Part shown: in pieces, positions 26,581 through 52,392 of the stretch | Layout: each line of letters begins with the position of its first letter | Numbering within the stretch: position 1 is the first letter of the stretch | Assembly (NCBI GenBank): GCA_003524095.1 | Contig: DOEE01000003.1 | Coordinates: forward strand, 732,662 to 796,661 | Source: Clostridiales bacterium | GTDB lineage: Bacteria; Bacillota; Clostridia; Christensenellales; UBA1242 | DNA length: 64,000 nt | Reading direction: 5' to 3' | Position numbers and translations under genes: made by a program | Notes under the pieces: generated by a model | The model's input: only the letters and a program-made list of their open reading frames with translations | Told to the model about the DNA's origin: nothing | The model's database searches: none

Positions 26581-26713
26581 AAAAAACTCCCAACCAGTTT
26601 TGGTTAGGAATATTTTGTACAAAATTTTGACGTTTATTACTGTTGATTATAATTTCGACATTATTGTCAATAACTAGTGCATAATTGACAAATATTTATG
26701 TATTATTGTCAAC

Positions 26714-27439
26714 TTATGCCAACTTTGTTATTTCTTTTTTTATTCTTATTACAATCTTTTTTTCAAGCCTACTTATATAACTCTGACTAATTCCAAGACT
26801 ATCTGCAACTTCTTTTTGAGTGAGTTCTTCCCCGCCAGATAGACCAAATCTAAGTACCATTATTTCTTTTTCTCTTTGGTTTAGTTTGTTGATAACTTTC
26901 CAGAGAATTTGCTTCTCGGTAGACTTTTCCATGCTTTCTTGCGGACAATCATTTTCGCTTGGAAGCAAATCAAAAAGCACCAACTCATTGCCTTCGCTGT
27001 CAACATTTAATGGCTCGTCTAAAGATACAACTTGTTTTTGTTTGCTAATTTTTCTAAGATACATAAGAATTTCATTTTCTATGCATTTGCTTGCATATGT
27101 TGCAATCTTTATGTTTTTGTCTGCCTTGTAAGAATTAATTGCTTTGATAAGTCCCAAACTACCAATGCTTATTAAATCTTCTACATCAACGTCCGCACTT
27201 GGAAATTTTTTGGCAACATATACAACAAGTCGTAGGTTATGTTCTATCAATTTTTGTTTGGCAAGTTCTGAGTCTTCAGAACTAAGCATTTCAATATAAT
27301 ACTTTTCATCTTCTTCGCTAAGTATATCTGGCAGTGACTCTCCACTATTTAGATATAGCAGTATATTCTCTGCACTTTCAAATAATTTTTCCCAAATATT
27401 TTTAACTTTATTCATATAATATTTTAAATTAAATTTCAT
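26714..27439 (-). CDS. sigE: pro-sigma-E (SigE)
   Basis: 241-aa sigma-70 family ORF with an N-terminal pro-sequence, immediately after spoIIGA with a 4-nt overlap. Motifs include NLRLVVYVAKKF and ISQSYISRLEKK. Confidence 0.9.
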   Translation of the reverse strand: MKFNLKYYMNKVKNIWEKLFESAENILLYLNSGESLPDILSEEDEKYYIEMLSSEDSELAKQKLIEHNLRLVVYVAKKFPSADVDVEDLISIGSLGLIKAINSYKADKNIKIATYASKCIENEILMYLRKISKQKQVVSLDEPLNVDSEGNELVLFDLLPSENDCPQESMEKSTEKQILWKVINKLNQREKEIMVLRFGLSGGEELTQKEVADSLGISQSYISRLEKKIVIRIKKEITKLA

Positions 27440-45717: not shown

Positions 45718-46389
45718 TTAGTTTACGTTAATCTGAGTTGGCGGGTTAACTGGTTGTTGTGCTGGATACAATGGCAAATCAAAATAACCACTACAAACGT
45801 CTTGAGTATAGTCTTGGCAAGGTGGAATTTGACAATATCCATATGTAGGAACGAGAAGTTCGGCATCAACAACAACACGGATAATAATTGTCATACAAGG
45901 ATCAATTGAGAAAGTTGAACTTTCAACAAATCTACCGCCCGAGCAAATTGCATTTGCAAACGCTGTTACTTGATAAGGTATAATAGATGGTTGTGGCACA
46001 TACAAAACAACATCAATAGGAATTGTAACAATTCCTGTTCCGCTACCTGCTACATTATTGTTATCTGTATAATTAACAGTAATTGGAACACTAACACTGC
46101 CAGAAACTCTAGCAAAGCATGGTTTGTCTTCAAACCTATCTACCACTAAGTTTGTAATAGTGACATCGTTTGTTTGAGTCTGACAACTAACAAAAGTAAG
46201 TGGAGCGGTCGGACTTTGCGGTTGTTGATTGGTCAAAGTCACCGAAGTTCCATCCATTTGAACTTGTTTCATACAAGCATCAAAAACCTTTCTTGTTTGA
46301 ATACAAGCTTTTTCACAAAGCCCTTGCAATGGATTGCCTGTTATTGGGCCGGGATTACAACCTTGTCTATTTCCGGAAAAAAATGACAT
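45718..46389 (-). CDS. orphan Cys-, Pro-, Gln-, Thr- and Val-rich protein of unknown function
   Basis: 223-aa ORF with a strong RBS (AAGGAGGT) and its own terminator. I see no signal peptide or TM segment. It is visibly richer in GC than its neighbours. Confidence 0.55.
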   Translation of the reverse strand: MSFFSGNRQGCNPGPITGNPLQGLCEKACIQTRKVFDACMKQVQMDGTSVTLTNQQPQSPTAPLTFVSCQTQTNDVTITNLVVDRFEDKPCFARVSGSVSVPITVNYTDNNNVAGSGTGIVTIPIDVVLYVPQPSIIPYQVTAFANAICSGGRFVESSTFSIDPCMTIIIRVVVDAELLVPTYGYCQIPPCQDYTQDVCSGYFDLPLYPAQQPVNPPTQINVN

Positions 46390-46589
46390 AATTTACCTCC
46401 TTAAAGATTGTATGGTAAATTATATGTAATCAGCCAAAATTTTGTGCATAAAAAAGGAAGAAATCAAAAAATTCCTTCCTACTTAGTACCTTTTTTGGTA
46501 GTACTTATTTTAATCTTTAACTATTAATTTTTTATTATATATCACAAATTTAATTAAAAGCACTATCTAATTTAAAAGATTGCAATCAA

Positions 46590-47483
46590 TTAAGCATTTG
46601 TTTGGCTTTCAGCAAAAACATTAGCAACAGCTACTTTTTCAAGCATTACGTTTTTGTCCACAACACCTTTTTCAAATTTGAAATTCATTGGATAAGTATT
46701 AGATTCCTTGTTACCGCCCACTTTGTCAAAAGATGAAGACAAACTTTCAATTCTTACGAATTCAGCATTCTCAGTTAATTCAATTTCGAAATGTGTTTTT
46801 AAAATAGTATCATTAGCGGTATCCATTACACTAATAGCATAAATTAAATAATTTCCATTTTCCAAAGCATCAACTTTGCAAAGATTATCTTCTGTAATTC
46901 CATATTTCTTTGTTACATCAAATAGACTTGCAAATTGTCCAGGCATTGAATATCCAAGTTCATATTCTTTTTCTATTAGTTCAGGCTGAGAATTTGCAAC
47001 TGGCAAATTATGATTATCAAATTTTGCACTCTTATATGTTCTCATATAATCTTTTTGGGTGTCGCCTTCTTGTTTTGTATAATTGTATTCTAGTGTATAA
47101 TTTTCTCCCCATTCAGTAGATTTTGACAATACTGCATAGTGAGTACTATCAAACATAACAATATCCATTACTTGCTCATCATATTCACCACCCACACTAC
47201 CTGATACAGTTATACGAATATTCTCCATAATATTATCCATTTGTAGTTGAGTTCTAACTTCGGCAAGTTTCAACAAATCATATGCTTCAGATTTGTCTAA
47301 TTTTTTGTTTTGCTTGTTAAGCAAATCCATTGTGTCCTTCATAAATTTATCTGAGTTGTCTACTACTGTAATAATTTTGTCCATTTGTGCTTGGCTTAGA
47401 TTAATGTCAGCACAGCCCGCCAAAGTTACTGCACCGACCCCACATAATGCTACCGCTGAGAGTATTTTTGTTAATTTTTTCAT
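46590..47483 (-). CDS. hypothetical lipoprotein
   Basis: 297-aa ORF with a signal peptide and lipobox (AVTLAGCAD) and an AAAGGAGA RBS. Confidence 0.7.
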   Translation of the reverse strand: MKKLTKILSAVALCGVGAVTLAGCADINLSQAQMDKIITVVDNSDKFMKDTMDLLNKQNKKLDKSEAYDLLKLAEVRTQLQMDNIMENIRITVSGSVGGEYDEQVMDIVMFDSTHYAVLSKSTEWGENYTLEYNYTKQEGDTQKDYMRTYKSAKFDNHNLPVANSQPELIEKEYELGYSMPGQFASLFDVTKKYGITEDNLCKVDALENGNYLIYAISVMDTANDTILKTHFEIELTENAEFVRIESLSSSFDKVGGNKESNTYPMNFKFEKGVVDKNVMLEKVAVANVFAESQTNA

Positions 47484-47526
47484 TTGTTCTCCTTTCTATT
47501 TTCAAAACATATTATTCATTATCCTT

Positions 47527-47557
47527 ATTATACCCCCCCCCCGGACATAATTTGCAA
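47527..47557 (-). promoter_or_regulatory. sigma-A type promoter whose 19-nt spacer contains a G10 tract
   Basis: Minus strand reads TTGCAA, then ATTATGTCC plus G10, then TATAAT. The -10 ends 43 nt upstream of the lipoprotein ATG. Confidence 0.6.
47533..47542. repeat. C10/G10 homopolymeric tract
   Basis: Read directly from the sequence. It is the longest G/C homopolymer I noticed in this AT-rich window; the other G/C runs I saw are about 5 nt. Confidence 0.95.
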
Positions 47558-47711: not shown

Positions 47712-47754
47712 CCAAAAAAGAAAAACTCGTCCGTAAAATCTTACAAACGAGTTT
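47712..47754 (-). terminator. rho-independent terminator
   Basis: AAACTCGT / ACGAGTTT stem followed on the minus strand by a T-rich run (TTCTTTTTT). Confidence 0.55.
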
Positions 47755-52363: not shown

Positions 52364-52392
52364 TTGACACACCCCCACTATGATAATATAAT
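52364..52392 (+). promoter_or_regulatory. consensus sigma-A promoter
   Basis: TTGACA, 17 nt, then TATAAT, about 30 nt upstream of the 52425 ORF, which has an AAAGGTGG RBS. Confidence 0.65.

Follow-up and report, generated by a model that had tools for sequence, protein, structure and literature searches.

Can a run of ten guanines, placed between the two hexamers of a promoter, act as a length-dependent switch for the gene that follows it? This question is raised by a locus in a 64,000-nucleotide stretch of DNA from a Clostridiales bacterium (assembly GCA_003524095.1, contig DOEE01000003.1, positions 732,662 to 796,661), the whole of which is called the window in the following. Read on the minus strand, the locus is cacTTGCAAattatgtccGGGGGGGGGGTATAATaagg, and its elements follow one another in the order TTGCAA-ATTATGTCC-GGGGGGGGGG-TATAAT from window position 47557 to 47527, ahead of the gene for a 297-aa lipoprotein. 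A sequence-only reading had proposed a candidate slipped-strand phase-variation switch at this site. The elements on which it built, namely TTGCAA, the G10 run, TATAAT, the 19-nt spacer, the 43 nt to the ATG and the ribosome-binding site (RBS), were each recovered on the minus strand, and the translated open reading frame has the 297 residues and the lipobox LAGC that had been reported. We consider it rather probable that slippage in the G run alters the distance between the -35 and -10 hexamers and hence the transcription of the lipoprotein gene, as either a phase or a volume switch.

The -35 hexamer TTGCAA (47552..47557, minus strand) matches four of the six positions of TTGACA and does not vary in any ortholog or paralog, not even in an ortholog with 39% protein identity. 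The -10 hexamer TATAAT (47527..47532, minus strand) is the consensus and is likewise the same in all relatives. Between them lie the non-repeat part of the spacer (47543..47551, minus strand), which occurs elsewhere as the variants ATTATGTTC and AATTAGGTC and is 9 nt long every time, and the homopolymer itself (47533..47542), G10 on the minus strand and C10 on the plus strand. This proposed slippage-prone element touches the -10 hexamer and brings the spacer to 19 nt; a promoter scan that takes spacers of 16-18 nt only hence does not list the pair. The predicted 5' leader, 43 nt from the -10 hexamer to the ATG (47484..47526, minus strand), contains the RBS AAAGGAGA (47488-47495, minus strand) ahead of the ATG at 47483, and transcription is predicted to start about 7 nt past the -10 hexamer. 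A search against Rfam gave no family at the leader or the locus, its sole match in the window being one tRNA elsewhere. Terminator-like hairpins are found on either side, both on the minus strand: that of the upstream zinc-ribbon membrane protein gene (47723..47754), which would insulate the lipoprotein promoter from read-through, and one 3' of the lipoprotein gene (46455..46480). The lipoprotein gene is thus a monocistronic unit that stands alone, and its promoter has to lie within the 290-nt gap; we infer that the TTGCAA/TATAAT pair is the promoter in use.

The run is exceptional for its surroundings, as had been claimed. The window has a G+C content of 32%, and its 64 kb contain 21 runs of C5, one run of G5, none of 6-9 nt and a single G/C run of 10 nt, so that the longest other G/C run is 5 nt. 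The expected number of G/C runs of at least 10 nt is between 0.003 (independent bases) and 0.006 (first-order Markov) for the window. G/C repeats of about 8 nt or more are long enough for hypermutability; by its length the run exceeds this threshold, and it lies far above the genomic background. The tract was found in every assembly that spans the site. At least 12 metagenome assemblies, independent of one another in study, assembler and year of sequencing, contain the identical tract sequence with flanks kept on both sides.

The conservation of the promoter was assessed on DNA retrieved around 10 of 11 protein clusters related to the lipoprotein, together with one metagenome contig from JGI/ENA; all tract lengths were read from assembly consensus sequences. 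Loci identical or nearly identical to that of the window come from human gut metagenomes. In the most distant ortholog (L011/L012, 39% protein identity) the 40-nt promoter core, which extends from just before the -35 hexamer to just after the -10 hexamer, is identical at 34 positions (85%) and reads TTGCAA-AATTAGGTC-G10-TATAAT, with G10 unbroken. The flanks of the same ortholog are about 35% identical, with 96 of 258 positions in the upstream intergenic DNA and 14 of 42 in the leader. Because an unbroken G10 has been kept over such divergence in DNA of 32% G+C, we conclude that selection maintains the tract.

The length of the tract differs among these relatives. G10 was found in eight independent samples, namely ERR636349 (two assemblies), ERZ27280371, SRR25448140, SRR25477512, SRR12557734, ULTU01056301, the L011/L012 pair and paralog b of a Hadza gut metagenome-assembled genome (MAG), CAKVHV01. 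G9 was found in two, ERZ28563957 (L063) and paralog a of the Hadza MAG, the latter at a contig coverage of 24x. The contig from ERZ28563702 (L064) has an interrupted 9-nt tract, GGGGAGGGG (G4AG4), which at a spacing of 18 nt looks as would be expected of a naturally locked allele. Orthologous loci with differing tract lengths, sought as a check on the proposed switch, were therefore found in the form of G10, G9 and G4AG4, and the tract is not strictly invariant among strains. The repeat number differs among orthologs of 85-100% identity, and its range is narrow, 9-10. A further observation concerns the ends of contigs: in 3 of about 15 assemblies the contig end lies 0-15 nt from the tract (the first letters of L005 are G10-TATAAT, L007 starts at the ATAAT of the -10 hexamer, and L009 38 nt before the ATG). 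If G10 coexisted with longer tracts, a de Bruijn graph would be expected to fork at the very position where L005 breaks; this is only suggestive.

In the mechanism proposed here, the promoter (TTGCAA / TATAAT) would be of the sigma-A type, and G10 would act as a hypermutable simple-sequence repeat within its spacer. Slipped-strand mispairing at replication would add or remove one G, shifting the distance between the -35 and -10 hexamers to 17 nt for G8, 18 nt for G9, 19 nt for G10 and 20 nt for G11, and the initiation rate would follow. A clonal population would then hold cells in which the lipoprotein level ranges from high to off, with G10 (19 nt) most likely the low or off state and G9 or G8 the on state. 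A useful slippage rate in this organism, the dependence of expression on tract length and the assignment of the on length are all predicted from sequence. Diversifying pressure on an exposed product, exerted by host antibody, phage or both, would make heritable and reversible silencing useful.

This leads to the question whether the lipoprotein is a plausible target of such pressure. Its gene (46590..47483, minus strand) encodes a signal peptide and the lipobox LAGC in codons 1-24; in the translation the N-terminus is MKKLTKILSAVALCGVGAVTLAGC, followed by A, a standard lipoprotein signal peptide. Neither Pfam nor NCBIfam gave a match for the protein, and its remote relatives are also without Pfam domains. 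A profile search returned 127 clusters at 50% identity, lipoproteins of 270-320 aa whose similarity lies mainly in the lipobox at the N-terminus and in a helical segment, DKIxTVVDNSDKFMxDT... One ortholog cluster of 15 member sequences (P0004, L063:95-988) has LADC in place of LAGC, with an unusual -1 residue for lipoprotein processing. An AlphaFold (AF2) model with a predicted local distance difference test (pLDDT) score of 74 shows a helical hairpin at the N-terminus and, after it, a beta-sheet domain. A LolA/RseB/LolB-like half-barrel was considered as a function and rejected, the Foldseek matches against the Protein Data Bank (PDB) being weak (template modeling (TM) scores of 0.32-0.37, E values of 3e-3 or worse), and no assignment was made. 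Directly 3' of the gene, at window 45718-46389 on the minus strand, lies a gene for a 223-aa cysteine-rich protein, which has no match in Pfam or NCBIfam and whose synteny is kept in all relatives.

Within the species, two allele types of the lipoprotein ortholog occur across gut samples. They differ mainly in two hypervariable segments, for which nonsynonymous (dN) and synonymous (dS) divergence were compared. In segment 1 (codons 91-110; 47154..47213, minus strand) dN is 0.60 and dS 0.63 between the two types, and in segment 2 (codons 216-275; 46659..46838, minus strand) dN is 0.26 and dS 0.57, so that dN/dS in these blocks reaches up to about 1. In the rest of the gene dN is 0.04 or less and dS 0.03-0.12. 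The two blocks point to a mosaic of old, recombining hypervariable segments.

The Hadza MAG, whose lipoprotein ortholog is 98% identical in protein to that of the window and which therefore represents the same species, has an additional paralog of the lipoprotein gene, situated between engB and the zinc-ribbon gene (L010:1429-2400 and L010:3058 onward, corresponding to L044 and L022). The two paralogs share 95-98% DNA identity from about 15 nt upstream of the -35 hexamer through the leader, the signal peptide and the first approximately 50 codons; past this point they are 40-70% identical in DNA and 50% identical at the protein level. Both are preceded by a tract, which is G9 for one paralog and G10 for the other. 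In the window the extra paralog is absent, as judged by blastn and tblastn of the 64 kb, and engB and the zinc-ribbon gene are 190 nt apart. Because of this extra paralog and the two mosaic allele types, the evidence points to a gene product that behaves like a variable surface antigen, with surface exposure predicted from the signal peptide and lipobox.

The surrounding genes comprise tig-clpP-clpX-engB upstream and the dcw cluster downstream, as well as spoIIGA-sigE-sigG and spoVD, and the last two sets identify the organism as a sporulation-competent member of the Bacillota. Near tig, a second tract was observed in the Hadza strain, where TTGACA-C9-TTGTGATAT-TATAGT precedes a 138-aa gene adjoining tig (L044:2331). 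The window counterpart (52364-52392, plus strand) reads TTGACA-CACCCCCACTATGATAA-TATAAT, with a 17-nt spacer and C5, before a 145-aa gene adjoining tig. By its sequence, the tig-side promoter is a second homopolymer-in-spacer promoter, unrelated to the first, with a homopolymer that is unbroken in the Hadza strain and broken up in the window.

The occurrence of the same design in other genomes was examined by scanning one genome per GTDB species and the JGI metagenome collection with the pattern TTGCAAA-N7-C-GGGGGG-N(0-12)-TATAAT, which requires neither a long run nor contact of the run with the -10 hexamer. Most of the matches in low-G+C Bacillota have G8-G11 directly abutting TATAAT, and the genes downstream of the matched promoters are overwhelmingly secreted or envelope-related, with a signal peptide or lipobox. 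Those with G9 include an adhesin-like protein of the SpaA/PA14 type in a Peptostreptococcaceae MAG and, in Ihubacter, a membrane glycosyltransferase of the YfhO family. In Lachnospiraceae, large proteins with signal peptides have G8, and two further lipoproteins on metagenome contigs have G8 and G10. In the isolate Emergencia timonensis SN18 (L029:2714-7562; also L049 and L040) a G9 promoter precedes a cyclic di-GMP (c-di-GMP)-I riboswitch (RF01051, L029:2865-2946), behind which an Lgt-like membrane protein and a surface protein of 1273 aa are encoded. A metagenome contig differs from the SN18 sequence by three substitutions in about 720 nt and by one G (G9 vs G10). This operon may be controlled at two levels, through slippage in the tract and through c-di-GMP.

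The largest set was found in a MAG of the Bacilli from rabbit gut, CANRBB01 (Lapin-016__bin61), which has at least 19 promoters of the form TTGCAA-N9-G9/G10-TATAAT, about 15 of them with G10 and 4 with G9. The copies lie on L013-L016, L019, L021, L023-L026, L037, L041 and L045 (for example L025:187, 1346 and 2511, and L016:1218 and 2324), part of them in tandem arrays of 1.1-kb units. Each promoter precedes, after a conserved leader of about 120 nt, a paralog of a secreted protein of 305-330 aa (MRKKRINKIMI...GYSYLSKTLGVSGNVTVK) that has no match in Pfam. In its sequence organization the set looks like a large phase-variable multigene family. A different arrangement was observed in two MAGs designated 'uncultured Clostridia' (L036:3048-3084 and L047:1680-1716), which have CTTGAC-G9-N7-TATAAT with a run that begins inside the -35 hexamer; the L036 promoter precedes a signal-peptide protein of at least 1003 aa.

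How far these data distinguish a switch from a static element has to be weighed, and several points speak against the switch. In this family of orthologs and paralogs the tract varies only between 9 and 10, with G10 strongly modal, and G8, which would give the predicted optimum of a 17-nt spacer, occurs in none of them; a near-fixed tract length is equally expected of a fixed cis-element. The scan pattern fixes the -35 hexamer and the length of 9 nt before the tract, which limits how far generality across taxa can be judged from its matches. Contig breaks at G10 can also be explained by slippage in Illumina sequencing or in the polymerase chain reaction (PCR) and by loss of quality. That G10 predominates, in this family as well as among the 19 copies, would be expected if most copies or cells were off; it would be expected equally of a fixed element and is the main argument for one. 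The proposal of a phase-variation switch is supported in part, by the length polymorphism, the deep conservation and the variable surface target, whereas the optimally spaced G8 was unseen and the lengths were clustered at 9-10.

In the most serious alternative, which we regard as rather unlikely, the G tract is a fixed cis-element, either a stiff G:C block that gives the spacer its form or a contact site for a regulator or RNA polymerase; the differences between 9 and 10 would then be rare, fixed and functionally minor, and regulation would be conventional. Such an element would account for the tight clustering of lengths and for the presence of G10 in most samples across orthologs of 39-100% identity. 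The contact between tract and -10 hexamer across the taxa found could similarly reflect a structural requirement. However, apart from the positions that the scan pattern dictated, the taxa have no motif in common, and a sequence-specific site needs no perfect homopolymer, whereas unbroken G10 runs are intrinsically unstable. The lengths range from 8 to 11 across loci and include both 9 and 10 among the paralogs of one genome, and a 9-nt version interrupted by an A exists. Furthermore, the association with surface proteins and with multigene families is the hallmark of contingency loci.

Since the organism carries spoIIGA-sigE-sigG and spoVD, a forespore promoter of the sigma-F / sigma-G type was also considered, under which the gene would encode a protein of the spore and the G's would belong to the recognition element. 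The Bacillus subtilis sigma-F consensus is GCATR-N15-GGHRARHTX, or GGnnAnAHTR. The sequence GCAAA-N15/16-GG(G)TATAATA fits this consensus fairly well, and GGGTATAATA matches GGnnAnAHTR at every specified position. In addition, sigma-F promoters of Clostridioides difficile are set apart by a conserved G upstream of the -10 element (PMC3789822). Yet the consensus needs one or two G's and not ten, the -35 element GCAAA has an A where sigma-F/G promoters have a conserved T, and TTGCAA-N17-19-TATAAT is what an ordinary sigma-A promoter looks like. No G run is present in the sigG promoter of the window, GCATA-N14-CATAAATA. The same design elsewhere drives large adhesins, an operon with a c-di-GMP riboswitch and a 19-copy secreted family, none of which are forespore genes, and a forespore role for the tract is judged improbable. 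The likely forespore-type sigG promoter lies at window 26640-26720 on the minus strand, between sigE and sigG, and offers a local reference for sporulation promoters.

Other routes to variable expression appear very improbable. Invertible promoters (invertons) are the usual mechanism in Clostridioides and Bacteroides. For Clostridia they are the documented mechanism of phase variation (PMC11868660), but around the window promoter there are only short (12-nt) AT-rich imperfect inverted repeats, and all assemblies show a single orientation; an inverton was ruled out by the lack of credible inverted repeats and the constant orientation. Reiterative transcription at the G run, of the kind known from B. 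subtilis pyrG, would start from a promoter further upstream, for which a weak AATTAT 5 nt upstream of the tract could provide the -10 element. This putative -10 element is without a -35 element and is not conserved, whereas TTGCAA/TATAAT is invariant. A C-tract promoter of the sigma-I type on the plus strand was rejected as well, as sigma-I uses an A-tract and CGAA (PMC6056542), no CGAA follows and there is no plus-strand gene. Finally, an artefact of sequencing or assembly, for instance the poly-G of two-colour Illumina chemistry, or a chance run has a negligible probability: although artefacts of the poly-G kind occur and the tract coincides with the end of some contigs, both are refuted by recurrence in independent data, with the same internal tract in at least 12 independent assemblies and in distant orthologs and a chance expectation of about 0.005 per window.

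The slippage switch preferred here belongs to a class with classical precedents. In Neisseria meningitidis, porA has a poly-G tract in its promoter spacer, and Bordetella fim is a further promoter-spacer contingency locus. A poly-C promoter has been described for N. meningitidis opc (Sarkari 1994, as cited in PMC3447861). In opc and porA the spacer of a sigma-70-type promoter of a surface protein contains a G/C homopolymer of about 9-14 nt, whose length grades expression ('volume control'); the window locus likewise combines such a tract with a putative surface protein. The systems differ in that opc and porA belong to Gram-negative pathogens, have no sequence relationship to the window locus and vary widely in tract length among isolates, whereas the window family, from an uncultured sporulating gut Clostridium, showed lengths of only 9-10 and is a candidate known from sequence. 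In structure, rarity, strain polymorphism and target gene the window locus agrees with loci of the opc, porA, vlp and fim type.

The precedent closest in design comes from the Mollicutes, which lie phylogenetically within the Bacillota. In the Vlp system, poly-A tracts are situated in the promoter spacers of paralogs that have a conserved promoter, leader and signal peptide and divergent mature parts, and expression is combinatorial. This variable lipoprotein system of Mycoplasma hyorhinis is among those cited in PMC11868660. The likeness extends to the lipoprotein target and to the two paralogs of the Hadza MAG, which share a 5' cassette and have a spacer homopolymer each, while the window has a single copy in 64 kb. 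Vlp differs by its poly-A, as opposed to poly-G here, and only one or two paralogs per genome were seen in the sequence covered here. The window gene contains no tandem repeats apart from a two-copy 12-mer, and the in-frame repeats of the Vlp type are thus absent; there is no homology to Vlp proteins, as judged from the absence of Pfam and NCBIfam matches. By these sequence features, the window lipoprotein is not a member of the Vlp family proper.

Homopolymers that alter the expression of surface or motility functions are also known from other systems. In Streptococcus pyogenes M28, an intergenic T tract between Spy1336/R28 and Spy1337 changes the transcription of R28 (PMC7098570). This is likewise a homopolymer altering surface-protein transcription in a member of the Bacillota, but it is a T tract between divergent genes of a non-sporulating pathogen and is not described as an element of a -35/-10 spacer. 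In Campylobacter jejuni, with its low-G+C genome, rare runs of G8-G13 mark phase-variable genes for surface structures. These tracts, in contrast to the present one, lie mostly inside coding regions and act by frameshift, in an epsilonproteobacterium. Reversible slippage at a homopolymer in a spore-forming member of the Bacillota is known from B. subtilis swrA, at 1e-4 to 1e-5 (PMC2831843), where it is a frameshift in the A8/A9 tract in the coding region of a motility regulator.

For sporulating Clostridia, phase variation of surface and signalling functions has been described in C. difficile, with invertible promoters at cwpV, flgB, cmrRST and pdcB (PMC11868660), and this 2025 review lists only invertible promoters for Clostridioides. 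These act by site-specific inversion between inverted repeats, credible examples of which were not found at the window promoter. A full-text literature search found no report of promoter-spacer homopolymer switching in Clostridia. The sequence-only reading was not aware of such control as a feature of spore-forming Bacillota; this has to be qualified by slippage in coding regions, known from swrA (PMC2831843), and by the intergenic homopolymer of S. pyogenes (PMC7098570), while promoter-spacer tracts in Clostridia are unreported in the literature found. The class of mechanism is known, and the lineage, Clostridia, is new.

On a wider scale, we suggest tentatively, and with less confidence than for the window locus itself, that in gut Bacillota, Bacilli as well as sporulating Clostridia, poly-G/C runs in promoter spacers recur as a means of phase variation which has gone unrecognised and which would operate alongside invertons. 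Its targets would be lipoproteins, adhesins or pilins, cell-wall glycosylation enzymes and tandem secreted families, with one locus layered on a c-di-GMP riboswitch, and the window locus would be an instance whose conserved, Vlp-like 5' cassette can be copied in front of divergent lipoprotein bodies. Alone, this locus would be a taxonomic extension of a textbook mechanism; the recurrence in front of surface-protein genes suggests a class of phase variation that metagenomics has overlooked. Phase variation in gut commensals has been mapped almost wholly via invertible promoters, both orientations of which assemble and which are hence easily found in metagenomes. Changes of one base in a homopolymer escape methods of the inverton type and are usually discarded as sequencing noise. 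The question is directly approachable from archived reads, and the conserved promoter cassette provides a simple search key for more such genes. If poly-G promoter tracts do switch surface proteins in Clostridia, a layer of heritable cell-to-cell heterogeneity has been missed in a part of the human microbiota that is among the most abundant and the least cultivable, and this heterogeneity would bear on coating by immunoglobulin A (IgA), phage resistance and strain persistence.

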